Assembly: GCA_964515055.1 (NCBI GenBank)
Contig: CAZEUG010000002.1
Location: 38,032-102,031 of the forward strand
Length of the DNA stretch: 64,000 bases
From: an uncultured Oscillospiraceae bacterium
Lineage (GTDB): Bacteria > Bacillota > Clostridia > Oscillospirales > QAMX01
Direction of reading: 5' to 3'
Positions 2,918 through 55,630 of the stretch are shown in pieces (positions within the stretch are counted from its first letter, which is position 1; each line of letters begins with the position of its first letter). The notes below the pieces were generated by a model. The model was not told the DNA's origin. It did no database searches and saw only the letters and a program-made list of their open reading frames with translations. The translations under genes were made by a program, and so were the position numbers.

Positions 2918-3664
2918 TCAGGCATAGCGGTACAGGTTTTCCCGGCCGCTCCGGCCAACGCACAAAACGGCCTGCATGGAAACGAGCAGGTTCAGCGCCT
3001 GCTGGGCATCGCGTCGGCGGATATGCGCCGCAGCGGCCAGCATGGCGCTGGTAAACGGTTCTTCCATCCCCTTCGGCAGCAGGGCTGCATAATCGGCGGG
3101 TGTGCGCAGGGCAATGACGGAGCGCAGCGCGGTCGGGATTTTTTCATAGCGCGTTGCGTGGCGTTTACGTGTTTCGCCGGTTCCATCCAGCAATCGATAT
3201 TCGTCCAGCGTCAGGCAGACGAGATCGACCGTCAGCCCCGGCATTTGCAGTCGGGATTTCAGCGCACAGAGATCCGACAACGCCTCCAGCGGTTTGCCGT
3301 GGACGCGTGAGCGCCGCGTTTCCACCACTTCCCCGCTCGCCGGTTCCAGCCAGAGGATGCGTGCATCGGTCACCACCGGGCAGACGATTCGCACATCCGT
3401 CACCGGCAAAAAGGCGTCCAGCTTTCGCGCCAGCCGGTGCAGCTGTGCCGTCTGGATTTCCACGGCGCACGTTTCTGCCAGGGCGTCCGTCACATAGCCC
3501 TGCAGCTTGCGTTCGTGACGTGTTTCGTCCGGCTCATAGAAATATTTCAGCGTGAGGTGCAGCGTTTTTTCGCCGAGAGAGCCAATCCCGTTTTCGCCGC
3601 GGCGCGCGGCGGCGGCGCGGAGACAGGCCTCTGCAAACGCCTGCTGCTGTTCAGTCTCAGTCAA
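2918..3664 (-). CDS. Conserved hypothetical protein, possible PD-(D/E)xK nuclease-like fold
   Basis: 248-aa ORF, TTG start 9 nt after GGAAGGAG. D..x10..VEIQT motif; function not recognised with confidence. Confidence 0.5.
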   Translation of the reverse strand: MTETEQQQAFAEACLRAAAARRGENGIGSLGEKTLHLTLKYFYEPDETRHERKLQGYVTDALAETCAVEIQTAQLHRLARKLDAFLPVTDVRIVCPVVTDARILWLEPASGEVVETRRSRVHGKPLEALSDLCALKSRLQMPGLTVDLVCLTLDEYRLLDGTGETRKRHATRYEKIPTALRSVIALRTPADYAALLPKGMEEPFTSAMLAAAAHIRRRDAQQALNLLVSMQAVLCVGRSGRENLYRYA

Positions 3665-3758
3665 GGGTCATGGCTCCTTCCCGTTTTTCCGGATATCTGC
3701 CCTTGATTATACCACATTTCGCCGCCTTTGAAAAGGGATTCCGTGCGTTTGCCGCGGT

Positions 3759-6062
3759 TTACGTGACTGGCAGCTCGTGATCGGTATAATGCAGCACGAT
3801 CACGGTGCGATCGTCGCCGTTGTCGTCCGTTTTCGCCATCCGCAGCAGCAGCTCTGACAGCTCCCGCGGATTGTCGCAGTGCAGCTTTTTCAGGCAGCTG
3901 CAAAATTCCTCCGGCGACTGACCCGCCAGGACACCATCGCTGGTCAGGACGATCAGGTCGCCCGGCGTGAGTGCTGTCCGCGTCACGCTGATTTCCTCCA
4001 TCGACGGCTTGCTGCCCAGAATGCGGACGTGATAGGCGTTCCCGCATTTGCGGCGGAGGAAGGTCGGCGCGGCGCGGTATTTGATCGTGTGGAGCTCGCC
4101 GGTTTTCGGATGCACCACGGCAATGTCCACCGTTGCGAAATTTTCGCCGTCTGAGCGAATCTGCACGGAGGAGCGGATGATATCGACGGCCTGTCCCGGT
4201 TCGATGCCCGCTCTGAGGAAGCTCTCCAGCAGCTTCACCGTTCGCACGGCTTCCTCCCGCGCTTCCGTCCCGCTGCCCATGCCGTCGCAGAGCACCACGT
4301 ACATACTGCCGTCCTTCCCGGTGAAATACGTCCCGCAGTCGCCGCTGATGCGTTCTCCGCGCCTTTTCTCGGCGGTTGCGCCAATCTGGCAGGAGCATTC
4401 CGGGCGTTCGGAGAAGGTCATGCAGGAGAGGTGCCGCCCCTCCAGCTGCTCCGGCATCGCCATTCGCACGCCGCTGATATGGCTGATGGCCTCCGCCAGC
4501 TCCTCGCCACGGCCGTTCAGCGCACGCAAATTCGTCCCGCACAGCTCGACGTGCAGGCGATCCTCACCGTCCCGGTAGGCGATCACCTCGGCCTCTGCGC
4601 CGTATTCTGCCGTCAGGCGCTTCAGCTCCGCTTCCAGCTTCGCCTCGAACTGCGGTTCGTTTGACAGCTCCACCGCCTCCGCATCCAGCAGCGCCGACAG
4701 CTGGCCGTACTGCCGGGAGAGGAGCGCACGGTTGTCGCGGTACTCCCCTTTTCGGATGTGCCGTTCCCGTCCGGCGCGAATGGCGAGCGTCAGGCAGGCA
4801 CAGACATCCTCCAGACGCGAGCAGCGCGTGCGGACGCTTTCACAGAAATCTGCCGGCTCCGCACGGCCGCGACCCATCATGGCGCGAAAGCCATTTCGCT
4901 CCGACGCCATTTCCCGGATGCAGCCCGTCCGGTTTTCGCATCGGCCGCAGGAGGCTTCCAGACCTTCTGCCAGCCAATCCGTCTCCTGCGCGTTCTCGCG
5001 CGTCTGGTCGGGCTTCATGGTCTTTGCCAGATCATCATAGGCACCCGCCAGACTTTGCAGCCTGGCCTGCATATGGCGGCGGATGTGGGCATCCGCGCCG
5101 CTGTGGTCGGTTTGCATTTTGCTGATCGGCCTTTGGAGCCACGCAGCCGGCAGGAGTGCGAAGGCGGCTGCGCCGACGGCCGCCTCAATCACAGCGCCGA
5201 ACGACTGCGCCTCCGTTGGGAGGAGCAGAATGGCCACGGCGTGGACGGCGACAAGTGTCAGCGCGGATGCCACGCGGCCGCCGCGGATGCTCCATCCGGC
5301 AGTCAGGCCGCCGAGCGCGTACAGTGCCGTGCAGAGTGGAACGCCGGAGCCGGTCAGATCCATGGTCAGGCCGATGGCCAGTCCCGCAACGGTTCCGCCG
5401 TAGGCTCCGGCTGCATACGCAGCGGCAAGCACCAGCGTGACGGCCGCCATGCAGCCGATTCGAATCGACAGGCCGCCGATGGAAAAGCCCGGCAGCGCTG
5501 CGCCGCAGAGTGCCAGCAGAACGAGCTGCGCGAGGAACTGTTTTTCCGAATCGAGCGCACTGGGCACGCGGCGGTTGGAGCCGTGGAGTGCTGTCGAAAA
5601 CACGGCTGCTGCGGCCATGGAGAGCATCAGCTCCGCGAGGTCGAGCAGCACGGCCAGCGCACCGCCGCCCGAGGTCAGGTGCCAGACCAGCCCCGTCAGG
5701 CCAATTGCCAGACCGGTGGAGAGCATGGCAAAGAGCGGTGTGCGCGTTCGGAACACCTGTCGAAGCGTCAGTTTGAGCATCATGGCGATCAGCGCGGCTG
5801 CCAGGTAGCGGATGCTGTCAATGCGGTTCCACGCGGCACAGGTGCCGATCAGAACACCCGCCGCTGTCGCCAGCAGCCGTCTGTTTTTCTGCTGTGCCTG
5901 CAAAAATGACACGCCGAACGGTGCGCGGCTGCCATAGATGATCGTCTGTGCCAGCAGGAAGCCGCCGACCGCAGCCAGGCAAAGCGCCAGCACCTCCCGC
6001 TGTTCGGGTATTCGCTGTTCGCGGACTTCTGTCGTGTTCGGGTCAAATTCCAAGAGTTTCAT
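3759..6062 (-). CDS. spoIIE: Stage II sporulation protein E (polytopic membrane domain + PP2C phosphatase)
   Basis: 767 aa. N-terminal ~320 aa is multi-TM; C-terminal PP2C/SpoIIE domain (GDCGTYF...VVLCDGMGSGTEAREEA...LTSDGV). Confidence 0.9.
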   Translation of the reverse strand: MKLLEFDPNTTEVREQRIPEQREVLALCLAAVGGFLLAQTIIYGSRAPFGVSFLQAQQKNRRLLATAAGVLIGTCAAWNRIDSIRYLAAALIAMMLKLTLRQVFRTRTPLFAMLSTGLAIGLTGLVWHLTSGGGALAVLLDLAELMLSMAAAAVFSTALHGSNRRVPSALDSEKQFLAQLVLLALCGAALPGFSIGGLSIRIGCMAAVTLVLAAAYAAGAYGGTVAGLAIGLTMDLTGSGVPLCTALYALGGLTAGWSIRGGRVASALTLVAVHAVAILLLPTEAQSFGAVIEAAVGAAAFALLPAAWLQRPISKMQTDHSGADAHIRRHMQARLQSLAGAYDDLAKTMKPDQTRENAQETDWLAEGLEASCGRCENRTGCIREMASERNGFRAMMGRGRAEPADFCESVRTRCSRLEDVCACLTLAIRAGRERHIRKGEYRDNRALLSRQYGQLSALLDAEAVELSNEPQFEAKLEAELKRLTAEYGAEAEVIAYRDGEDRLHVELCGTNLRALNGRGEELAEAISHISGVRMAMPEQLEGRHLSCMTFSERPECSCQIGATAEKRRGERISGDCGTYFTGKDGSMYVVLCDGMGSGTEAREEAVRTVKLLESFLRAGIEPGQAVDIIRSSVQIRSDGENFATVDIAVVHPKTGELHTIKYRAAPTFLRRKCGNAYHVRILGSKPSMEEISVTRTALTPGDLIVLTSDGVLAGQSPEEFCSCLKKLHCDNPRELSELLLRMAKTDDNGDDRTVIVLHYTDHELPVT

Positions 6063-6228
6063 AGGGTGGTCTGTCCTTCCTGAGAATGCTTTTGTATCGG
6101 GCGATTGCCCGCCTGTATATCATACCGTCCGGGCGGTGGTATTTTTTGTCGCATTGGACAGACCGATTCTTTTTTCACCGTTGGTTCTTTTTCGAAAATC
6201 CGACACGTTCCATCATTTGAAAGCACCT

Positions 6229-6273
6229 GAAAACGCCGCATTCCATCCCCTTCGATCGAATGCGGCGTTTTTT
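6229..6273 (-). terminator. Intrinsic terminator downstream of rlmH
   Basis: 12-bp stem AACGCCGCATTC/GAATGCGGCGTT with A/T runs on both sides, 9 nt after the rlmH stop. Confidence 0.6.
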
Positions 6274-6281
6274 GCGTCTGT

Positions 6282-6755
6282 TTATTTATGATATTTGCGG
6301 TGGTTCAGAATTGCAAAGGCGCGATAGAGCTGTTCCAGCAGCATAACACGCGCCAGGTGGTGCGGAAACGTCATTTTGGACATGGACAGCAGCCAGCCTG
6401 CGCGCTGCTTCAGGCGCGGGCTGAGGCCGTTGGAGCCGCCAATGACCAGGCACAGGCGGCTGTCGCCGCCGCTCGCCAGCGTGTCAATGCGGGCGGCGAA
6501 GGCTTCGCTCGCCAGCTGAGCGCCCTCCGGCGTCAGGACGATCAGGAATGCGCCCTTTGGAATTGCCCGCTCAATGGCATCGCACTCCGCTTCCAGCGCG
6601 GGGGCGATTTCCGAATCGTTGTCCACCGGGCGCTCCGGCAGCTCAAGCACCGTGACGGATGCGAAGGGACGCAGGCGCTTCAGGTATTCCTCACAGGCGG
6701 CCTGATAGTGCTTTTCCTTCAGCTTACCGACGCAGATCAGTGTGACAGAGATCAT
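6282..6755 (-). CDS. rlmH: 23S rRNA (pseudouridine1915-N3)-methyltransferase RlmH
   Basis: 157 aa, SPOUT family. MISVTLICVGKLKEKHY...LVIGGSNGL...MTFPHHLARVMLLEQLYRA is the characteristic RlmH pattern. ATGA overlap with the upstream gene. Confidence 0.9.
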   Translation of the reverse strand: MISVTLICVGKLKEKHYQAACEEYLKRLRPFASVTVLELPERPVDNDSEIAPALEAECDAIERAIPKGAFLIVLTPEGAQLASEAFAARIDTLASGGDSRLCLVIGGSNGLSPRLKQRAGWLLSMSKMTFPHHLARVMLLEQLYRAFAILNHRKYHK

Positions 6756-7624
6756 AAGTCAGGGGCCTCCGGCGCTTCCGGCGGGGTGTCCTCCGGGGAC
6801 GTCCGGTTCCGCTCATCCGCCGAGCGGACATATTCCGCATAGACGACCTGCGTCATCCGCATATACGGCATCAGATAGAGCAGCGGCAAAAACATGAACA
6901 GGGCGCACATCAGATACCATCCGGCGAAGCTGACGATGCAGAGTACCCATTCCCACACATGGCCGCGCATGGCGCGCCACGAGCGCAATGCGGCATCAAA
7001 CGGCCCGGCCTCCGGGTGGTCGAGGAAATAGTACGGCGTCAGCAGCAGGCGGATTGCAAACAGCGCGTAGATCAGCATACATCCCAGTGAGACGGCAACG
7101 ACGCGGCCATCAACGAGCGCCCAGTTGACCGTCGGCGATGCCAGAGCGGTCAGCTGCTCCGACAGATCGGCCAGCACAGCATCCGCCGTATCGAGCAGCC
7201 AGCTGGCTGGGATGCTGTACAGTGCAAGGGAGATCAGGCCGGTCACGACGGTGTAAACATAGTATTCCAGCACGCGCTTCAGCCGTTCGCCATCGGAATA
7301 CCATAGAAAAACATCCATCACACGCGGCTTCTGGCGGCGAAACGCCTTCATCAGGAATTCGGCAACACCCAGTGTCAGCGGTACCAGCAGGAAGCCGGTC
7401 AGGACGGTCAGCAGAGCGGAGGAAAGATCAAAGCGATAGACCCAGATTTGAACCATGCAGATCAGCCCAAATCTTTGTGTCAGGCCGGAAATTACCGTGG
7501 AAAGTGCGAAACCGGTCACCGTTTCCAAGGCAAGGAGAAAAACGATTTTGAACAGATACGGCGCCATGGCCGGTTTGGCCAGGCCTTTTGCCGTTCGAAT
7601 GACCTGTGAGCGTGGCAGTTTCAT
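6752..7624 (-). CDS. Polytopic membrane protein (DUF975-like), Pro-rich C-terminus
   Basis: Several hydrophobic helices. Start chosen at MKLPRSQVIRTAKGL (uncertain); stop overlaps the rlmH start. Confidence 0.55.
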   Translation of the reverse strand: MKLPRSQVIRTAKGLAKPAMAPYLFKIVFLLALETVTGFALSTVISGLTQRFGLICMVQIWVYRFDLSSALLTVLTGFLLVPLTLGVAEFLMKAFRRQKPRVMDVFLWYSDGERLKRVLEYYVYTVVTGLISLALYSIPASWLLDTADAVLADLSEQLTALASPTVNWALVDGRVVAVSLGCMLIYALFAIRLLLTPYYFLDHPEAGPFDAALRSWRAMRGHVWEWVLCIVSFAGWYLMCALFMFLPLLYLMPYMRMTQVVYAEYVRSADERNRTSPEDTPPEAPEAPDL

Positions 7625-47600: not shown

Positions 47601-48536
47601 TTATTGCAGACCCATTGCCGCGTTCAGGCGTTCTGACAGCTCATGCGCGGCGTTGTAGCCCATGCGTTTATTGCGGTCATTCATGGCGGCGACCTCGATG
47701 ATAATGGCCAGGTTGCGCCCCGGGCGCACCGGCACCGTCAGGGACGGCACATCGATGCCCAAAATGTTCGTGTATTCCGTATCCTCGCCCAGGCGGTCAT
47801 AGATTTTGCCCTCTTTCCAGGGTTCCAGATGAATCACCAGATCCACCTTTTCCGTCATTTTGACGGCAGCCATACCGAACAGGCGCTTGACGTCAATGAT
47901 GCCGATGCCGCGCAGCTCGACAAAATGGCGAATGATTTCCGGCGCGCTGCCAACCAGCGTTTTCGACGAGACGCGTTTGATCTCAACGGCATCGTCGGCG
48001 ATCAGGCGGTGGCCGCGCTTCACGAGCTCGATGGCCGTTTCGCTCTTGCCGACGCCGCTGTCGCCCATGAGCAGGATGCCCTCGCCGTACACCTCAATCA
48101 GCACGCCGTGCCGGGTGATGCGCGGAGCCAGGTGGATTTTCAGCGAAGCGATCAGCGCGCTCAGCGTGGTGGAGGAGTCTTCCTTTGTCCGCAGAATCGT
48201 CACGCCGTACTCCTTCGCCAGCTCCAGACATTCAGGATACGGTTCAATGTTGCGCGTAATGATCAGCGCGGGAATGTTCATTTTGAAGAGCTTTTCCAGA
48301 GAGGAACGGCGGCGCTCCGGCGTAAACCGGCTCAGGAAGGTCGTTTCGACCTTGCCGATCATCTGGAGACGTTCATTGTCGAAGAAATCATAAAACCCGG
48401 CCAGCTGAAGTCCGCAGCGGTTGACATCGTCCGAATAGACCAGAATATCCCGATAGCCCTCCGGTGCCGTTTCAACTGTAAAGGCCAGCTCATCAATCAG
48501 CGTTCCGAGTGCCACACTGTATCGGACACTATCCAT
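47601..48536 (-). CDS. hprK: HPr kinase/phosphorylase
   Basis: GDSGVGKSETAIELVKRGHRLIADDAVE P-loop/signature. Start re-picked at MDSVRYS after GGAGAGGAG. Confidence 0.92.
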   Translation of the reverse strand: MDSVRYSVALGTLIDELAFTVETAPEGYRDILVYSDDVNRCGLQLAGFYDFFDNERLQMIGKVETTFLSRFTPERRRSSLEKLFKMNIPALIITRNIEPYPECLELAKEYGVTILRTKEDSSTTLSALIASLKIHLAPRITRHGVLIEVYGEGILLMGDSGVGKSETAIELVKRGHRLIADDAVEIKRVSSKTLVGSAPEIIRHFVELRGIGIIDVKRLFGMAAVKMTEKVDLVIHLEPWKEGKIYDRLGEDTEYTNILGIDVPSLTVPVRPGRNLAIIIEVAAMNDRNKRMGYNAAHELSERLNAAMGLQ

Positions 48537-48819: not shown

Positions 48820-50508
48820 ATGTCATCTGTGACCGATCGATTGATTCAGTTTCTTCAGCTGCACGCACCTGCCGAATCCGCCCCGGAGTTGGATCCCGCC
48901 TCTTTCCTGTCCGCACACCGTGTTCCCCTGCCGATCACCGTGGGGCATGAAGATCCGGGACAGAAAATTCAGCGGTTCACGCAGCGGCACATCCAGACAA
49001 AGCTGCTCCGTGCCATGCAGGAGTTGCTCACGTGTTTTCAATCGCATGGCATCGGTGTTCTGTTTCTGAAAGGGCCGTTGCTGGGATTGGAGCTGTATGG
49101 CGAAACCGGAATCCGTCCGACGTCCGATCTGGATCTGTTTGTTGCGGATGCTCAGGTTGCCGATGCATTGGACGCGTTGACGCAACTTGGCTATACCCGA
49201 ACAAACGGCACACCCTATTCCGGGAAAGACCGTGTTTACGAACTGAACCGTGGCGATATGCGTCTGAAAATGATGGGGCGGCATCTGACTGCCGTCCGAT
49301 CTTCCGGAAACTGGACGATCACGGTGGAATTGCACGCCACGCTGTTCCGGCACTATACTGCCATTTCACCGGCCTCTTTGGAATCGCAGGCAAACCGGAT
49401 CTTTTCTGACAGCCGCAGCATATCCTGTCAGGGAATTGACTACCCCGTTCCGGGCGTTTTGGATTCGTTCCTGATGCTCTGCACGCACTTTGCACGGCAC
49501 ACGGTGGAGGCATTGACCGCATTCTGTGCCAGAAAACAGCGGCCGCGTTTTCCGCTGCATCAGTTGCATGATCTCGCACTCTTTTTTGAGCACTGGTCGG
49601 ATGCGCTGTCGGCTTCCGACCTTTGGGCGCGTGCCCTGGTGTTCGGCAGTCAGGCCGATCTGGCCTTTGCCTGCCGGTATTTGCATGAAATATATGGAAT
49701 CGACCTTTGGCGATCGATTGCGCCATATCTTTCCGACAAACCGGATGACGATTTTGAAAATGATATCGTATGGAGCATTCTGCGGCAGCTTTCCGCTGCA
49801 GAGCTGCTGTTTTGTGCGCCGTCAGACAATCTCGCCCGTTTGCAATCCGTTGTTCCTGTCCGCCGCTGTTATGAACTCCGGAATGTGCGCGAGCTTTCTG
49901 CCGTTCCGGCCGACTATGAAGTCCGGGAGGTCTTTGATGATCTGTCCCGGCCACCTCTGCGGGAGCCCTATTCCTTCCGTTGGGGCGCTGCGTGTTCCGA
50001 TGAACAGCTCATGTTCTGCGTGGAAATTCCAACAGACCGTGTTGTCTTTCTGGGGGGATGCCAGAAAAATCTTCGTCGAAACTGTACCCGCTCCGACTGT
50101 CCGAAAGACTGTGCCGCACAGCACGGCGCCAATACGTTGATTCGTTTGCTGCTGCCCGGGACACATTGTCCGACCGAGGCCGGCAGCTGCATGAATCTGT
50201 ATGAAATCAGCATGATACAGACCGCAGACGGTCTCCGGCTCACAGCCGACCGAAACGGCCATCCGTTCGCCCTGTCCGGAGCTTCCGTTACAGAGAAAGA
50301 CGGCTTTTGGCAATTGCGGTTTCTGTTGCCGATCCCGGATTCCGGTGTTTCCAACGCCCTGCCTTTTATGATTTCCCGTGAAATTCTGCTTCCATTTCCG
50401 CACCGTCCGGAGCAAGCCATCGCCTTTAGTGTGCGCTGGCTGAACAGTGTTGCGGTTTCGCATCAGACCTGTCTGAGTTGCGGCCTGCTGCGAAAATCCC
50501 GCCTGTAA
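48820..50508 (+). CDS. Nucleotidyltransferase-fold protein (uncharacterised NTP_transf_5/PF14907-like) with ~250-aa C-terminal extension
   Basis: FLKGPLLGLELYGETGIRPTSDLDLFV matches the K-G...Y...R..D.D..V signature of that family as I remember it. ATG 10 nt after GGAAGGAG. Confidence 0.65.
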   Translation: MSSVTDRLIQFLQLHAPAESAPELDPASFLSAHRVPLPITVGHEDPGQKIQRFTQRHIQTKLLRAMQELLTCFQSHGIGVLFLKGPLLGLELYGETGIRPTSDLDLFVADAQVADALDALTQLGYTRTNGTPYSGKDRVYELNRGDMRLKMMGRHLTAVRSSGNWTITVELHATLFRHYTAISPASLESQANRIFSDSRSISCQGIDYPVPGVLDSFLMLCTHFARHTVEALTAFCARKQRPRFPLHQLHDLALFFEHWSDALSASDLWARALVFGSQADLAFACRYLHEIYGIDLWRSIAPYLSDKPDDDFENDIVWSILRQLSAAELLFCAPSDNLARLQSVVPVRRCYELRNVRELSAVPADYEVREVFDDLSRPPLREPYSFRWGAACSDEQLMFCVEIPTDRVVFLGGCQKNLRRNCTRSDCPKDCAAQHGANTLIRLLLPGTHCPTEAGSCMNLYEISMIQTADGLRLTADRNGHPFALSGASVTEKDGFWQLRFLLPIPDSGVSNALPFMISREILLPFPHRPEQAIAFSVRWLNSVAVSHQTCLSCGLLRKSRL

Positions 50509-50577: not shown

Positions 50578-50820
50578 CGCACAAAACAGTTGTCAGGCAA
50601 AGAAAGCGTATGGAAATTGAAATGTTTTCACAGCCTTGGTGTTGGTATGGTGGTGTATTTGTGAAAGCGCAGACTGAGCCTGTTTCAGGTGATGTCTGCG
50701 CTTTTTTGGCCATTGTCAGGAGAAATCAAAAAACGACCGTATCATTCGTCAGCGAATTATTGATAAGAGGATGGTTGAATCATGGGAACGGAATGGAAAA
50801 AGAGTCGGTATGCATTCTTT
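50578..50820 (+). repeat. Direct repeat copy 1 (243 bp)
   Basis: Identical to 50929-51171 except G/C at 50592/50943. Contains a terminator hairpin, an RBS and the first 13 codons of the rSAM gene. Confidence 0.95.
50664..50707 (+). terminator. Intrinsic terminator (in repeat copy 1; likely ends the nucleotidyltransferase transcript)
   Basis: AAAGCGCAGAC...(inner CCTG/CAGG)...GTCTGCGCTTTTTT. Confidence 0.65.
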
Positions 50821-50862
50821 TGTCTTTTCTATTTTTTTGTAAAGTGCTTGACAGGTGAATAA
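50782..50862 (+). pseudogene. Duplicated 5' stub of the rSAM gene (13 native codons, then 13 unrelated codons and TAA)
   Basis: ATGGGAACGGAATGGAAAAAGAGTCGGTATGCATTCTTT is identical to 51133-51171; the reading frame then diverges (MGTEWKKSRYAFF-CLFYFFVKCLTGE*). Confidence 0.6.
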
Positions 50863-50876
50863 AGAAGTGATATAAT
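50848..50876 (+). promoter_or_regulatory. Consensus sigma-A promoter in the 108-bp segment between the repeat copies
   Basis: TTGACA-17 nt-(TGa)TATAAT: perfect -35, optimal spacer, extended -10 and perfect -10. Confidence 0.65.
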
Positions 50877-50928: not shown

Positions 50929-51171
50929 CGCACAAAACAGTTCTCAGGCAAAGAAAGCGTATGGAAATTGAAATGTTTTCACAGCCTTGGTGTTGGTATG
51001 GTGGTGTATTTGTGAAAGCGCAGACTGAGCCTGTTTCAGGTGATGTCTGCGCTTTTTTGGCCATTGTCAGGAGAAATCAAAAAACGACCGTATCATTCGT
51101 CAGCGAATTATTGATAAGAGGATGGTTGAATCATGGGAACGGAATGGAAAAAGAGTCGGTATGCATTCTTT
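50929..51171 (+). repeat. Direct repeat copy 2 (243 bp; leader and start of the rSAM gene)
   Basis: See copy 1; the offset between copies is exactly 351 bp. Confidence 0.95.
51015..51058 (+). terminator. Terminator hairpin inside the rSAM 5' leader (candidate attenuator)
   Basis: Same hairpin + T6 as 50664-50707, lying between the consensus promoter (50848-50876) and the rSAM ATG (51133). Confidence 0.55.
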
Positions 51172-52455
51172 ATTGAGCAGGAAAATGGTGCAATGATCAT
51201 TTATCATTCGACCACAGGTTTTATCTTACAATGTACAGAACCGGAATACATTGAAAAGGCACAAAAGATCGCCAATCAGTCCGCTTTTGAAATGGATGAA
51301 GGAAATGATTTAATGTGTTTGCTGCGAGACAAAGGTGTCCTTTTGGAAAACGATTTTGACGAAGATGCTCAAATTCGGCAATTGTACGATCGGGTCGTTA
51401 TGCACAGAAATCAACTTTCTCTGACGTTAATCGTAACGAGGCAGTGTAATTTTCGTTGCGTTTACTGCGGTCAGAAACACGAGAGCAACAAGCGTATGTC
51501 TCGTGAGATCTATGATAGAGTCCTATTGATGATTGAAAAAACATGCCATGATAAAAAGATAGACAGTGTTTCCATTTCTTTTTTTGGCGGAGAACCGCTT
51601 TTGGAATGTGAAGGAATTCTATATTTTCTGGAGAAATTACAGGGATTATCAAAAAAGACCGGAATTCCCTATTATGCAGGAATGACCACAAATGCATATT
51701 TACTGACAAAAAATAATTTCGAGCGTTTGGCACAGTTGAATTGTTTGGATTATCAAATAACATTGGATGGTATGGATGAGACTCATGACAAAAAAAGATA
51801 TCTCATCGGAAAAAGGAAAACATGGAAAACCATCGTAGATAATCTGCTCTATATCAAGTCAACAGATTATCCTTTCAAAATCATTTTGAGGACAAATTTT
51901 GATACAGAAGTCTTGCAATCAGTAGATTCATATTTGAATTTCGTGTCAGAAAATCTGAATGACGATCGTATCCTGATGTATCACGAAACCATTAAGGACC
52001 ACGGGAATCCCGAACAAAACGAATACATGTCGCAGTCTGAAGCGATTTTAAGCAACGTCGAAATTTCTCGTCTTTTGAAAGAGAAGGGTTTGAAATCTTC
52101 ACTTGTTTTTTCTTCAACAACGCCTGCCTGTTCGATGTGTCGAGCAGGAATTCCTGATTTTTATGTAATCGATTACGATGGAAGTATCAAAAGATGTACA
52201 CACCGATTGGATACTGAACCAAACTACCTGGGCAATCTGTCAGATGATGGTTCCATGATCATTGACCCTTCTCTGGATGCAAAATGGATTTATCGGGACT
52301 ATTTGTCCGATGATGAATGTAAAGAGTGCAAATTACTTCCTCTGTGTTTTGGAAAACAGTGTCCTGTTGCGCGGGTTGATCCCCAATTGGAGTTCGATTG
52401 TAACAAAGATTTGCGTGCTCTGGAACTGGAGGAAATCCTGCGCGTTCATTTATAG
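51133..52455 (+). CDS. Radical SAM/SPASM peptide maturase with N-terminal RRE-like domain
   Basis: CNFRCVYC (CX3CX2C). C-terminal CRAG-x10-DG-SIKR-C then CKECKLLPLCFGKQC ... DC gives the SPASM Cys pattern. About 95 aa precede the rSAM core. Confidence 0.9.
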   Translation: MGTEWKKSRYAFFIEQENGAMIIYHSTTGFILQCTEPEYIEKAQKIANQSAFEMDEGNDLMCLLRDKGVLLENDFDEDAQIRQLYDRVVMHRNQLSLTLIVTRQCNFRCVYCGQKHESNKRMSREIYDRVLLMIEKTCHDKKIDSVSISFFGGEPLLECEGILYFLEKLQGLSKKTGIPYYAGMTTNAYLLTKNNFERLAQLNCLDYQITLDGMDETHDKKRYLIGKRKTWKTIVDNLLYIKSTDYPFKIILRTNFDTEVLQSVDSYLNFVSENLNDDRILMYHETIKDHGNPEQNEYMSQSEAILSNVEISRLLKEKGLKSSLVFSSTTPACSMCRAGIPDFYVIDYDGSIKRCTHRLDTEPNYLGNLSDDGSMIIDPSLDAKWIYRDYLSDDECKECKLLPLCFGKQCPVARVDPQLEFDCNKDLRALELEEILRVHL

Positions 52456-52495
52456 AGGGACAGGATTACAATTCAGGAAGAAAGGAGGATCAAGT

Positions 52496-52663
52496 ATGCA
52501 TGTGGTTCAAGATGCGGCAACCCCCGCAATGATTGCACGGAGAGTGCAAAGCAATGGTTGTGATTGCAATTGTAAGTGTCATGGTGGTACCGGCAGCTCC
52601 GGGGGAAGTAATTGCAACTGTCGTTGCAGCCAACCGTCTAAATCCAATAAGGTTGTGGATTGA
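52496..52663 (+). CDS. Cys-rich RiPP precursor candidate A1 (55 aa)
   Basis: AGGAGG 7 nt upstream of the ATG. MHVVQDAATPAMIARRVQSNGCDCNCKCHGGTGSSGGSNCNCRCSQPSKSNKVVD. It is hidden in the 3' end of tracked ORF 52262-52663. Confidence 0.75.
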   Translation: MHVVQDAATPAMIARRVQSNGCDCNCKCHGGTGSSGGSNCNCRCSQPSKSNKVVD

Positions 52664-52675
52664 AAGGAGGGACAA

Positions 52676-52825
52676 ATTATACATATCGTAAAGGATATTG
52701 CGATTCCTGCGTCCATTGCACGCGCCACTCAGGAAAACGGTTGCAATTGCAATTGCAATTGCAATTGTCATGGTGGTAGCGATGGCGGTTCCGGCGGTAC
52801 CAAGTGCAACTGTCGTTGCAGCTAA
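52676..52825 (+). CDS. Cys-rich RiPP precursor candidate A2 (48-49 aa, non-canonical ATT/ATA start)
   Basis: AGGAGGG RBS at 52665-52671; paralogue of A1: (M)IHIVKDIAIPASIARATQENGCNCNCNCNCHGGSDGGSGGTKCNCRCS*. No ATG/GTG/TTG in frame; ATT at 52676, and ATA at 52679 aligns with the A1 ATG. Confidence 0.6.
   Translation: MIHIVKDIAIPASIARATQENGCNCNCNCNCHGGSDGGSGGTKCNCRCS
52742..52765 (+). repeat. (TGCAAT)x4 hexanucleotide tandem repeat encoding (Cys-Asn)4
   Basis: Read directly: tgcaattgcaattgcaattgcaat, followed by tgt. Confidence 0.95.
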
Positions 52826-52832
52826 ACCGCCT

Positions 52833-52875
52833 GTCACGGCAGGCAGATTTTCGAGAAATCTCTGCCTGTCGTGAC
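52833..52875 (+). promoter_or_regulatory. Intra-operon stem-loop after the precursor genes (partial terminator or mRNA stabiliser)
   Basis: 15-bp stem GTCACGGCAGGCAGA/TCTGCCTGTCGTGAC (one G-U); the T5 run begins 7 nt after the stem, 8 nt after the A2 stop. Confidence 0.5.
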
Positions 52876-52921: not shown

Positions 52922-54736
52922 ATGAAAACCTTAAAAAGGGTACTTGGTTGCCAGTCTTTCATGTTGAAGCGAATGTATCGGGACAGCAAACGGCTCTTTT
53001 ATGTGACCCTGATTCAGTCGATTCTGTCCGGTATTTATCCAACCATCGAGCTGGTTGTCAGCAGGAACCTGATTGATGCCCTGGTACGGCTTTCCCTGCG
53101 GGATGCCATGATCAGTATTTCTGTCCTGATCGGCAGCTCCCTGCTCTATTATATTCTGAAAAAGCTGCTGAGTTTTATTGCCGACAATGCGTATAACCTG
53201 ATTCGGCGCCAGATGCGGTTTGACCTTTTTGAAAAGACCTGCTCGCTCGATCTGGCCGTGGCAGATCTGCCGGAAAACAGAACCCTGTATGAAGAAGCAC
53301 AGGGTGCCAACCAGAACAACCGTTGCATGCGGGTTCTGGATTCCTTTTTCAGCATTTTTACCGCCTGTATCACGTTGATTTCTTCCTATATCGTGATGAT
53401 CACAGTTGATCCATGGATTATGATTGTCATTGTCGCCGTGGTCATTCTGCAATCGTTTATCACCATTCGATCGCAGAAGCTGGCTTATGAGACCTGGCGG
53501 GAAGACGCCCGAACCAACAAGGAGGCGTCCTATGTTCTGGGGCTGCTGTTTGACCGCAACTGTGCCTTTGAAATGCGGCTGCACAATCTGTCACAATGGG
53601 TCATTCGGAAATTCAACAAGGTGCAGACCGAATCCGATCTGCTTTGGATTGAAAACAACAAAAAGCAGCAGAGAAACGATGTTTTGAATTTTGCCGTACA
53701 GCTGGTGCAGAAAGCGATTCTGTACGTTTATCTGGCACTGCAGATGCTTTACGCCAATATGACCGTTGCGAATTTCACACTGTGCTTCAATTCTCTGAAC
53801 CAGATTTCCAACAATCTGGTCGCCCTGATTCGCACATTTATTGATATTTTTGAAAATTCCAAGTATATTTACAGCTATAAAAAATATCTGGCGCTGGAAA
53901 ATACAATTGCCGTGCATCGGCCGGATGAAAAGCCGGTCGCCAGAAATGAAGCCCGCAACAACGAAATTGTCTTTGATCACGTCAGCTTCCGTTATCCGGA
54001 AGCACCGGCAGACGTGCTGCACGATATCAACCTGCATCTGGAGCCGCAGAAGTTTTATGTCATCGTTGGTGCGAACGGCGCCGGGAAAACGACGCTGATC
54101 AATCTGCTGATGCGTTTGTATGATCCGTCGAGCGGTTCGATTCGCCTGGGGCAGACCGATATTCGCGACTATGATTTTCAAAGCTATCGGGACTGTTTTG
54201 GTGTGGTTTTCCAGAATTTCAAGGTTTTTGATTATTCGTTCTTTGAAAACATCACGCTATCCGAGGAGGAAAATGAGGAGATCGATGCAGAGGTTCAGCA
54301 GGTCATTCAGAAGGCCGGATTGGCCAACAAGGTGTCACAGCTTGCCAAAGGGATGCACACCTGTGTCGGTAAAGCGTTTGACCAGGATGGCGTCAAGTTA
54401 TCCGGCGGCGAATATCAGAAGGTTGCTCTGGCCAGAGCGCTGTACAGAGACAGTCAGATTCTGATTCTGGACGAGCCATCCAGCGCATTGGATGCGTTGG
54501 CAGAGGATGATCTGATTCAGACCTTCCAGCGAGCCAGCACCAACCAGACGGTTTTCTATATTTCGCACCGTCTCTCCGTGGCGCGCTTTGCATATCGCGT
54601 GATTTTTGTCGGCGATCATACGATTTTGGGCTGCGGCAGCCACGACGAGCTGATGCAAACCTGTCCGCAGTATGCAGAGATGTATACGGCACAGGCCAAA
54701 TATTACACGGAACAGGAAACCGCCCCTTCGCACTGA
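52922..54736 (+). CDS. ABC exporter, fused permease + ATPase (no C39 peptidase domain)
   Basis: Six-TM N-terminal half; GANGAGKTT Walker A, LSGGEYQKVALARAL signature, ILILDEPSSALD Walker B. Start re-picked at MKTLKRVLG. Confidence 0.9.
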   Translation: MKTLKRVLGCQSFMLKRMYRDSKRLFYVTLIQSILSGIYPTIELVVSRNLIDALVRLSLRDAMISISVLIGSSLLYYILKKLLSFIADNAYNLIRRQMRFDLFEKTCSLDLAVADLPENRTLYEEAQGANQNNRCMRVLDSFFSIFTACITLISSYIVMITVDPWIMIVIVAVVILQSFITIRSQKLAYETWREDARTNKEASYVLGLLFDRNCAFEMRLHNLSQWVIRKFNKVQTESDLLWIENNKKQQRNDVLNFAVQLVQKAILYVYLALQMLYANMTVANFTLCFNSLNQISNNLVALIRTFIDIFENSKYIYSYKKYLALENTIAVHRPDEKPVARNEARNNEIVFDHVSFRYPEAPADVLHDINLHLEPQKFYVIVGANGAGKTTLINLLMRLYDPSSGSIRLGQTDIRDYDFQSYRDCFGVVFQNFKVFDYSFFENITLSEEENEEIDAEVQQVIQKAGLANKVSQLAKGMHTCVGKAFDQDGVKLSGGEYQKVALARALYRDSQILILDEPSSALDALAEDDLIQTFQRASTNQTVFYISHRLSVARFAYRVIFVGDHTILGCGSHDELMQTCPQYAEMYTAQAKYYTEQETAPSH

Positions 54737-54745
54737 AAGAAGCTG

Positions 54746-55630
54746 ATGACCGTGCTCGTGTATAGTATATACGGTTTATCCGTGGAATCGAATCTGGAGC
54801 TGTCTTATGTAGATGCAGGCCGTCCAGGTGTCTGTGATATGCGGCTGCACGTGTCCTTTGCGGAAATGCCGCCGGTTCAGCCCATACGGATTCTGGAATC
54901 CGAACAATGGCTGACCATTGAGCTGTTCCCCTTCGCGGTTTATCGGCTGGACAGGTATTCCAACGATGTTTTTTGTCAGGCAGCAGATTATGAGTCATTT
55001 TACTCGACATTTTTCAATCTGCCGTGCTCGGTCTTTCTTTTGCAGCGCGGTGATCTGCTTTTGCACGCGTCATCACTGGTTCACAGTCAAACAGGTGAAT
55101 TGATCGGTTTTGCCGGGCAGAAAGGTGTCGGGAAAAGCACGCTGGTGCATCTGTTGTGCGGGGAAACGTATCAGATTTATGCGGATGATACCCTGCGGAT
55201 TCCGATGGATACCTCTATGGGATTCCGGGGAAATTCTCTTTTGAAACTGACGCCGGAGACGTCCGCCCTCATTCAGGGCAGGCTTCAACTGACGGGACAT
55301 CAAAATGCAGTCGGAAAAGATTATGCCGCCATTTCAACAGATTCCCGGCAACGTCCGATTCGGGCAATCGTTCAACTGACGCGAACTTCGGAGGTAACTT
55401 TTTCCATCCGGCCGGTAATCGCCCCGTTACAGCGTGCCCAAATCATTTGCAGACATCTGACAGGCATCCCGTTCTGGACGGCTTCCATGATTCAAAAGGT
55501 CATGCAGCTTGTCAAAAAAGTCGAGATTCCCGTTTATTCCATGCGAATCCCCGATTCTCTGCATCGTTTGGAGCAGCAAAAGTCGGACATCCTCTCAGCC
55601 CTTGAACAGATGACGAACTCGGTTCTGTGA
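54746..55630 (+). CDS. HPr-kinase-like P-loop protein (putative RiPP peptide kinase)
   Basis: LHASSLVHSQTGELIGFAGQKGVGKSTLVHLLCGETYQIYADDTLRI parallels the genuine HprK in this window ([44 protein letters not shown]). Confidence 0.7.
   Translation: MTVLVYSIYGLSVESNLELSYVDAGRPGVCDMRLHVSFAEMPPVQPIRILESEQWLTIELFPFAVYRLDRYSNDVFCQAADYESFYSTFFNLPCSVFLLQRGDLLLHASSLVHSQTGELIGFAGQKGVGKSTLVHLLCGETYQIYADDTLRIPMDTSMGFRGNSLLKLTPETSALIQGRLQLTGHQNAVGKDYAAISTDSRQRPIRAIVQLTRTSEVTFSIRPVIAPLQRAQIICRHLTGIPFWTASMIQKVMQLVKKVEIPVYSMRIPDSLHRLEQQKSDILSALEQMTNSVL

Follow-up and report, generated by a model that had tools for sequence, protein, structure and literature searches.

Tandem alternating-cysteine peptide genes beside a radical SAM/SPASM maturase gene in an uncultured Oscillospiraceae bacterium: a rare, uncatalogued family with a predicted C-terminal serine tailoring module

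We analysed a stretch of 64,000 nt from an uncultured Oscillospiraceae bacterium (assembly GCA_964515055.1, contig CAZEUG010000002.1, positions 38,032 to 102,031 of the forward strand), hereafter called the window, in which two short genes for peptides with alternating Cys residues, A1 and A2, lie in tandem directly 3′ of the gene for a radical S-adenosylmethionine (rSAM)/SPASM maturase. The two peptides are paralogues and, judged from comparison with related loci, they represent an uncatalogued, rare family of rSAM-modified, Cys-rich peptides of ribosomal synthesis with modification after translation (RiPPs) that is encoded together with a predicted C-terminal Ser tailoring module. As read from the sequence, the transcription unit consists of a promoter, a 5′ leader with a terminator-like hairpin, the rSAM gene, A1, A2, a second hairpin, an ATP-binding cassette (ABC) exporter gene and a gene for an HprK-related protein, and the gene for a PF14907 nucleotidyltransferase is located just 5′ of this unit. 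The features are listed below in genomic order.

48820-50508, + strand: nucleotidyltransferase, 562 aa; PF14907 NTP_transf_5 at residues ~58-295 (Pfam E 6.5e-31)
50848-50876, + strand: sigma-70 consensus promoter (TTGACA, 17 nt with TG, TATAAT; 12/12 matches), ~257 nt 5′ of the rSAM start
50929-51171, + strand: proximal copy of a 243-nt direct repeat, covering 5′ leader and the first 13 rSAM codons; other copy at 50578-50820
51018-51058, + strand: terminator-like hairpin in the 5′ leader, GCGCAGAC / GTCTGCGC, then T6
51133-52455, + strand: rSAM/SPASM peptide maturase, 440 aa, assigned with NCBIfam and Pfam; putative N-terminal domain like a RiPP recognition element (RRE)
52496-52663, + strand: precursor A1, 55 aa in the window strain; leader residues 1-21, core 22-45 (CDCNCKCHGGTGSSGGSNCNCRCS), 10-aa stop-loss tail
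52676-52825, + strand: precursor A2, 49 aa from ATT; core CNCNCNCNCHGGSDGGSGGTKCNCRCS; own Shine-Dalgarno (SD) sequence at 52664-52670
52742-52765, + strand: four TGCAAT units (Cys-Asn codon pairs); copy number strain-dependent, 6-nt indel relative to locus L009
52833-52875, + strand: 15-bp hairpin between A2 and the exporter gene (dG -28.6 kcal/mol, z -5.9)
52922-54736, + strand: ABC exporter, 604 aa, fused permease-ATPase
54746-55630, + strand: HprK-related P-loop protein, 294 aa; invariant H107, G124-K126-G127-G129-K130-T132 and D147-D148-T149

A1 runs from an ATG at 52496 to a TGA at 52661-52663 and is preceded by the SD sequence AAGGAGG at 52482-52488, 7 nt 5′ of the ATG. The initial annotation had described A1 as buried in a 133-aa open reading frame (ORF), and this was confirmed, as a TTG-initiated ORF at 52262-52663 encloses A1 and overlaps the 3′ end of the rSAM gene (52455). 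A2 follows directly 3′ of the A1 TGA in the same frame, with AAGGAGG as its SD sequence, and stops with a TAA at 52823-52825. Its frame contains no ATG, GTG or TTG start, the first plausible one being the ATT at 52676, which is why A2 is absent from the ORF list even at a 30-aa cutoff. The homologue P0128 (MIHIVKDIAIPASIARDTQENGCNCNCNCHGG..., MIHIVKD...) has Met at the exact codon where A2 has ATT. Given the common frame, read-through of the TGA joining A1 to A2 was considered and dismissed, since A2 has its own SD sequence and the homologues are separate genes with ATG. Six-frame translation of the whole window showed alternating-Cys runs of at least four residues only in the A1 and A2 ORFs, and the two tandem peptides noticed earlier, neither with an ORF entry, are present at the positions first given for them. 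Both begin with a leader of ~21 aa with the pattern xHhVxDhAxPAxIARxxQxNG, and the cores of 24-28 aa follow C[D/N]CNCxC-[H/S]GG-(Gly/Ser linker)-[N/K]-CNC[R/H/Y]C-Ser-COOH; the cores in the window hold 7-8 Cys including a second CNCxC block.

Homologous peptides were found directly 3′ of homologous rSAM genes at loci L001-L005, L007-L009, L011, L014-L016 and L018-L021, and 5′ in L013, with an ABC homologue 3′ of the peptides at most of them. The neighbouring maturases were 41-100% identical to that of the window, and conservation of the peptides next to related maturases, on which the proposal of A1 and A2 as leader-plus-core precursors of the adjacent rSAM enzyme had been staked, is therefore borne out. 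Pairwise dN/dS (the ratio of nonsynonymous to synonymous substitution rates) ranged from 0.05 to 0.31 where dS could be estimated, with one pair at 0.45; dS was often saturated. In the narrow family of close homologues, all 11 genes have Ser at the peptide end, 10 of them as Ser-TAA, the exception being the window A1 (CAA), and a GAAAGGAG-type SD sequence stands 5-8 nt 5′ of the start in 10/11. The A2 gene of L011, a metagenome-assembled genome of a related Oscillospiraceae bacterium that carries both A1-like and A2-like genes, has no such SD, only GAAAGG directly abutting the ATG. By these comparisons, A1 and A2 are real conserved precursor genes under purifying selection. Members of the family at other loci are as follows.

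L001-3: MSIIVDVVSPESISRELQRNGCDCNCDCHGSGAGSSGGSNCNCRCS (rSAM 59-65% identical group)
L004/5: ...CDCNCDCHGGGAGSSGGSNCNCRCS (rSAM 59-65% identical group)
L007/8: ...CDCNCNCHGGAAGSSGGSNCNCRCS (rSAM 59-65% identical group)
L018/19: ...NGSDCNCDCSGGLPGSGGGNNCNCRCS (rSAM 59-65% identical group)
L020: ...NGCDCNCNCSGGQPGKSGGQNCNCYCS (adjoins partial rSAM gene, ~48% identity)

The run of Cys ending in His was described correctly for the window peptides; among homologues the His is not conserved, with Ser at this position after the run in P0129 and P0130, and P0129 has Ser in place of the first Cys too. Similarly, the 4-5 alternating Cys reported at first are present, with the qualification that their number is polymorphic in A2, as described below.

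The narrow family was found to be rare. A profile search of 1.84 billion representative proteins returned six true members, and a word-based search of 5.8 billion proteins returned two. The initial annotation had suggested a pattern search of databases; the DNA pattern NGC[DN]C[DN]CxCHGG matched JGI metagenome contigs once (L017) and yielded no true member. The L017 match (90-461) is a 123-aa protein whose gene lies among other small genes in AT-rich, phage-like DNA. It begins MPNADLVYNADLSTEPVVVENGCNCNCGCHG and has an NGCNCNCxCHG motif after a ~20-aa, leader-sized segment, followed by long Pro-rich sequence; we set it aside as a Pro-rich protein of phage-like surroundings that looks unrelated. 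No model in Pfam or NCBIfam matches A1/A2 or the more distant peptides, and nothing on the precursor motif was found in the literature. In L001 the public gene call over the precursor (7419-7541) is in the wrong frame (MAAIVIVIAMV...), and a 40-aa call stands at the same position in L002 (5615-5737) and L003 (3635-3757), which may partly account for the near-invisibility of the family in protein databases. On this evidence the narrow family is rare and uncatalogued; it comes from uncultured gut-type, Oscillospiraceae-type Clostridia.

Next to rSAM homologues of 41-48% identity, the peptide cores differ and the same signature is retained. All five cores of this wider family listed here contain one or more C[D/N]C units and end in Ser; several distant members have no His.

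L021 core: GCQCSMNIGCNCKCTS
L013 core: HCNCSCGYGNGGNGGNDCNCHCGKGNGGNGGTDCNCGCGYTS
L014 core: GCDCVCPQVCPNAGCPEINVGCNNCIATS
L015 core: GCDCHCDEPQTACINVGACS
L016 core: GCNCGCAKINCSSCQKTGCDCGCVDFNCGS

With A1 counted at the family stop position, a terminal Ser was present in 16/16 distinct family precursors from 6 divergent lineages, and genes for the HprK-like protein and the nucleotidyltransferase were both present at every family locus complete enough to judge. As controls we took two rSAM clusters of the same clade, on a Clostridium tetani plasmid and the Clo7bot cluster with its nine peptides, which, unlike the window family, lack HprK-like and nucleotidyltransferase genes. Only 1/10 of the control precursors ends in Ser, compared with 6/6 family lineages (Fisher p = 8.7e-4). 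The rSAM of the C. tetani plasmid is 34% identical to that of the window and its precursor ends ...NPGNR. This plasmid (L022, NZ_AP029032.1) carries at 5932-7490 the rSAM gene followed by a gene for a 77-aa Cys/Pro-rich putative precursor (...CSCPPPPPDSGCPLAICGPEMAKNPGNR), with ABC transporter, S41 peptidase and C39 peptidase genes near it, and plasmids of 64-113 kb with a 34%-identical rSAM occur in several C. tetani strains. Neither the invariant C-terminal Ser nor its co-occurrence with HprK-related and PF14907 nucleotidyltransferase genes figured in the initial annotation; the association of terminal Ser with these two genes is circumstantial, yet we consider it the most specific new lead.

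The maturase has the rSAM motif CX3CX2C at C105/C109/C112, invariant in 18 homologues (Pfam Radical_SAM E 9.5e-16), and a SPASM domain with seven invariant C-terminal Cys (C336, C355, C396, C399, C405, C410 and C423). A total of 689 homologues were found, and an adjacent, co-conserved precursor peptide is present at the related loci. Scanning genome contigs with the single rSAM sequence gave one true relative only, L011, and scanning viral contigs with the rSAM alignment gave nothing. Full-length NCBIfam matches were obtained for TIGR04463 (4.8e-52), CefB (1.1e-50), geopeptide, Clo7bot, FlmE/OhkG, PapB (1.3e-31), CcpM and QhpD-type maturases, and the MftC model was not among the top matches. 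The nearest of these, the Clo7bot, Cys-every-fifth (CefB), TIGR04463 and geopeptide maturases, have short Cys-rich peptides as targets, judged from the model names and from the Clo7bot and C. tetani loci. The best solved relative, by sequence (E 2e-9) as well as by fold, is the thioether synthase CteB, to which the AlphaFold2 (AF2) model of the maturase (predicted local distance difference test score, pLDDT, 91.7) aligned with a template modelling (TM) score of ~0.7 over 448-465 columns, including the N-terminal domain; the fold matches to CteB and anSME are full-length. In this model residues 1-90 form a beta-sheet with helices (pLDDT >86), and no Pfam PqqD match was obtained for this part.

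At related loci that are long enough, the gene order is rSAM, precursor(s), ABC exporter (~600 aa) and a 272-294-aa protein, with a PF14907 gene nearby; L013 and L021 have the cluster genes in a differing order. The ABC homologue lies directly 3′ of the peptide genes wherever downstream sequence is present, except in L013, where the precursor is 5′ of the rSAM gene, and in L007/L008, where no ABC homologue was found downstream. No peptidase domain was matched by Pfam in the window exporter. The nucleotidyltransferase has the same gene call in L009, and a PF14907 gene exists at every full-length related locus; the C-terminal ~260 aa of the window protein matched no family. The 294-aa protein has a P-loop, GxKGxGKS/T, and shows the core pattern of HprK-like proteins, in which a His and a GxxGxGKS/T P-loop are followed by DD ~17 residues beyond the Lys, with the His, P-loop Lys and DD spaced as in the HPr kinase/phosphorylase (HprK/P) encoded in the window. 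When six divergent members of its family were compared with profiles, HprK_rel_B and HprK_rel_A were matched by 6/6 (best E 2.7e-5 and 5.4e-5) and ScmC by 3/6, and hhalign aligned the P-loop and DD motifs of the 294-aa protein with those of the window HprK/P (E 8e-4, probability 24%). A word-based search with the 294-aa protein gave only relatives of at least 82% identity. We thus regard this protein as HprK-related with moderate confidence, on its motifs and profile matches. The genuine HPr kinase/phosphorylase gene used for this comparison (47601-48536, - strand) is located just 5′ of the cluster, probably by coincidence, because the other loci do not have it.

Several related loci contain further genes. 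In L001 (11132-12964) and L014 (11163-12847), a short PF14907 gene is followed by a gene for an acyl-carrier-type protein (PF00550, 82-85 aa) and one for a 476-521-aa protein without family; this hints at further tailoring, which is absent from the window. L015 has a second RiPP-like cassette (3305-5762, - strand) back to back with the related cluster, with genes for a PqqD-family and a ScmC-family protein, two small ORFs of 42 and 38 aa and a gene for a protein of 353 aa. ZIP-family (PF02535) metal transporter genes flank two distant clusters, L013 (11189-11977, - strand) and L014 (2341-3132 and 4393-5178, + strand).

The region 5′ of the rSAM gene has a repeat structure. The two copies of the 243-nt repeat are spaced 351 nt apart with the sigma-70 promoter between them, and L011 has the same layout and keeps the promoter. 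In L009, from a near-identical strain (98% DNA identity over the region) that served for comparison of alleles, and in L010, the leader repeat occurs only once and the promoter insert is missing, which recombination between the repeats probably explains; the sigma-70 promoter is absent from L009. A 72-nt block (50987-51058, and 50636-50707 in the other copy) is identical in the proximal copies of the window and L011 while its flanks diverge, and 71/72 positions are kept in the other repeat copy of L011. It is made up of a GU-rich tract, TTGGTGTTGGTATGGTGGTGTATTTGTG, then the GCGCAGAC/GTCTGCGC hairpin and T6. The block was not found in the more distant loci and has no match in Rfam, where the operon leader and the peptide region returned nothing beyond spurious miRNA hits to the TGCAAT repeat. 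From its sequence, this terminator-like element in the 5′ untranslated region is a possible attenuator or new cis-regulatory leader. For the hairpin at 52833-52875, 0/200 shuffled sequences fold as well, a U-run begins 4 nt after the stem, and the sequence is identical in L009; it is likely a partial terminator setting the precursor to enzyme ratio.

Taking the genes together, we consider it probable, short of confident, that A1 and A2 are precursors of a RiPP that would receive leader-guided Cys thioethers from the maturase, be phosphorylated and decorated at its C-terminal Ser, and be exported by the ABC transporter. The putative RRE-like N-terminal domain of the maturase would bind the leader, and the rSAM/SPASM core would turn Cys thiols into thioether cross-links. 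Two kinds of acceptor are candidates. The recurring Asp/Asn between Cys suggests links to the beta-carbon of Asp/Asn flanked by Cys, as with PapB, QhpD and NxxcB. QhpD-type enzymes use Cys as the cross-link donor, and NxxcB is reportedly an enzyme of Cys-to-Asn beta-thioether chemistry. PapB forms Cys-to-Asp beta-thioethers across 0-6 intervening residues (PMC9413430). The Gly/Ser linker suggests a Cys-to-Gly hairpin like that of StsA, with links to the alpha-carbon of linker Gly/Ser. The invariant Ser at the C-terminus would then be phosphorylated on its side chain by the HprK-related protein and the Ser phosphate decorated by the nucleotidyltransferase, a pattern known from the lasso peptides paeninodin and pseudomycoidin. 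[quoted passage not shown]

Of the characterised systems, CteB-thermocellin/SCIFF, PapB-freyrasin and QhpD are closest. Their maturases resemble that of the window in the CX3CX2C core and 7-Cys SPASM domain, and probably in an RRE-like N-terminus, and the systems share with it a Cys-rich, leader-bearing precursor, an ABC exporter and Asp/Asn near Cys. However, the window peptides match no peptide model, SCIFF and freyrasin included, and their Cys strictly alternate as C[D/N]CxC rather than forming the CX3D units of the freyrasin type, and the window family adds the invariant C-terminal Ser with kinase-like and nucleotidyltransferase genes. StsA/StsB of Streptomyces sparsogenes resembles the window system in i,i+2 Cys followed by a Gly-rich segment. 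The StsA sactipeptide precursor has a CxCxCx4GxGxG core in which Cys2/4/6 are linked to Gly11/13/15, joining three Cys to three Gly alpha-carbons in a hairpin (PMC10288494), and the i,i+2 donor spacing, which had been held to set A1 and A2 apart from known sactipeptides, accordingly has a precedent. The correspondence is partial, as the window linker HGGTGSSGG departs from x4GxGxG whichever Cys is taken as the start, the window cores carry a second CNCxC block with 7-8 Cys in all, and StsB resembles MftC and depends on a separate RRE protein. Cys-to-Asn links, proposed at first as a possible new topology, have a counterpart too, as Cys-Asn beta-thioethers are already listed as NxxcB chemistry. 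For the tailoring genes, paeninodin and pseudomycoidin appear to be the closest parallel, in that a C-terminal-Ser precursor is encoded there alongside an 'uncharacterised nucleotidyltransferase' and an HprK-like P-loop protein; the window kinase-like protein has His/P-loop/DD motifs in common with HPr kinase. In contrast to the lasso clusters, the core-forming enzyme in the window is an rSAM enzyme and not a lasso cyclase with a protease. The HprK_rel_A/B systems and ScmC of SynChlorMet give weak, consistent profile matches to the 294-aa protein (~20 against a cutoff of 200 bits), the L016 homologue of this protein has a precomputed Pfam ScmC match, and L015 has the adjacent cassette with ScmC and PqqD described above. 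The SynChlorMet cassette also contains rSAM/SPASM enzymes, and both it and the HprK_rel_A/B cassettes are themselves uncharacterised. A literature search gave nothing relevant on HPr kinase with radical SAM, SynChlorMet/ScmC, PF14907 or the matched NCBIfam families.

Several points weigh against this pathway. All of the modification chemistry was inferred from sequence and analogy, and we agree with the initial annotation that chemistry cannot be read from sequence. The maturase scores below every NCBIfam equivalog cutoff, the best being 177 against 525 bits for TIGR04463, followed by CefB (173/600), Clo7bot (140/600), PapB (110/340), CcpM (89/500) and the SCIFF maturase (50/425). Its fold is matched almost as well by the non-thioether SPASM enzymes TigE, anSME and SuiB, and ChlB is also close; since these come close behind CteB, the fold points to a SPASM RiPP maturase with a predicted leader-binding domain and to no particular chemistry. 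The sequence signals behind the HprK assignment are weak (E 1e-3 to 1e-5, hhalign probability 24%), ordinary P-loop matches to the 294-aa protein score similarly, and its AF2 model, built from a shallow alignment of close homologues, has a pLDDT of 32 and is unusable. The equivalence of the PF14907 protein with PsmN of pseudomycoidin is presumed. No leader peptidase was found in the cluster. Finally, in the window A1 lacks a C-terminal Ser, its Ser being internal, and A2 lacks a canonical start, and the HprK-like gene of L009 (11221-12101) is matched over residues 1-89 in one frame and 85-294 in another, a sign of a frameshift or perhaps of an assembly error; L009 also lacks the promoter-bearing repeat unit of 351 nt, with its A1 intact.

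The last of these points raise the alternative that the peptide genes are decaying remnants in the window strain, giving no mature product there, with the family functional elsewhere. The A1 tail, QPSKSNKVVD, is the result of a stop loss, with CAA at 52631-52633 in the window and P0001 against TAA in L009, where it comes straight after CNCRCS, and in all other homologues; the 55-aa allele is real and not an error, because it also occurs in P0001, an independent assembly. The ATT start of A2 is common to the window and L009. The A2 Cys run differs between strains, with four TGCAAT units giving 5 Cys in the window and three units giving 4 Cys in L009 and P0128; the Cys number of A2 varies by slippage of this hexanucleotide repeat. 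The A1 tail and the missing start codon of A2 are, by comparison with the family, lesions, and with the frameshifted HprK-like gene and deleted promoter unit of L009 they imply that the cluster may be decaying in the window lineage. Set against this, all four ORFs for the rSAM enzyme, the ABC exporter, the kinase-like protein and the nucleotidyltransferase are intact in the window. The extended A1 ORF ends 12 nt before the A2 ATT, overlapping the A2 SD, which could allow coupled re-initiation at A2, and ATT is a usable though weak bacterial start codon. We consider decay without a product unlikely; in the window lineage the pathway may be being lost or the alleles may be tolerated, and product output may be reduced or altered because both precursors deviate from the family.

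Two alternatives concern the chemistry itself, and we give each of them rather little credence. In the first, the rSAM enzyme would carry out a non-thioether reaction (for instance C-C cross-linking, epimerisation, Cys oxidation or cyclopropanation), with the Cys serving as disulfides, recognition elements or cluster ligands. The structural scores of TigE, anSME and SuiB, similar to that of CteB, are compatible with this, as are the NCBIfam matches, all below cutoff and most to families that are themselves uncharacterised. Against it, besides Asp/Asn, Gly and the terminal Ser only Cys is strongly conserved in the cores of divergent members, and Cys is the cross-link donor in the characterised clade members with Cys-rich substrates (CteB, PapB, QhpD-type). 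In the second, the terminal Ser would be no kinase substrate; it would accept a thioether by way of its free carboxylate or be recognised by the exporter, and the 294-aa protein would be an ATPase with another role. The strongest single matches of this protein are indeed to generic ABC-type/GTPase P-loops, and PapB can join an internal Cys to the C-terminal residue through the free carboxylate, a reaction shown in vitro with Gly, D-residues and beta-residues but not with L-Ser (PMC12373016). Favouring Ser as the kinase substrate instead are the HprK_rel_A and HprK_rel_B matches in all and the ScmC matches in half of the divergent members, the invariant His/P-loop/DD spacing as in genuine HprK/P, and the pairing of the kinase-like gene with a PF14907 gene as in lasso clusters.

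Fainter still is the prospect of a hybrid RiPP of an undescribed class, a very small C[D/N]CxC peptide, either densely cross-linked or metal-binding with part of its thiolates retained, that would end in phospho-, glycosyl- or nucleotidyl-Ser and be made by the rSAM enzyme together with the HprK-like/nucleotidyltransferase module; a radical version of it is a secreted chelator of zinc or other metals linked to ZIP transporters. Least probable of all is metal binding alone, in which most Cys would stay free thiolates, the exported peptide would be a metallothionein-like chelator or metallophore and the rSAM enzyme would have a minor or different role: the dense CxC motifs with His, and three ZIP-family genes in all beside L013 and L014, speak for it, but the thiolate/His ligand set proposed at first is weakened because His and the first Cys vary among family members (His to Ser in P0129/P0130, first Cys to Ser in P0129, several distant members without His), no metallothionein family in Pfam or NCBIfam matches A1/A2, and the nearest characterised enzyme relatives consume Cys thiols. 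The adjacency of ZIP genes was rejected as weak evidence for a metal role, as it concerns two loci whose ZIP genes are orthologous (57-61% identity) and so not independent observations, and none was found in the window or the other loci fetched by then.

New rSAM RiPP families are found often, and the present one has two specific features: Cys packed densely at i,i+2 spacing, and a kinase/nucleotidyltransferase pair linked to a C-terminal Ser. The antiSMASH rule for ranthipeptides is keyed to the SCIFF peptide model. With no peptide model of its own, a gene call in the wrong frame and this SCIFF-keyed rule, the family is an example of a blind spot in RiPP mining. The scaffold would be compact, with 7-8 Cys in ~25 residues at i,i+2 spacing, and its cross-link topology would be new whichever acceptor is used. 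If the proposed pathway of thioether formation and Ser tailoring is true, this would be, within the literature searched, the first rSAM-modified Cys-rich RiPP tailored at its C-terminal Ser by a kinase/nucleotidyltransferase pair, and a tailoring logic so far known only from lasso peptides would extend to a second RiPP class.

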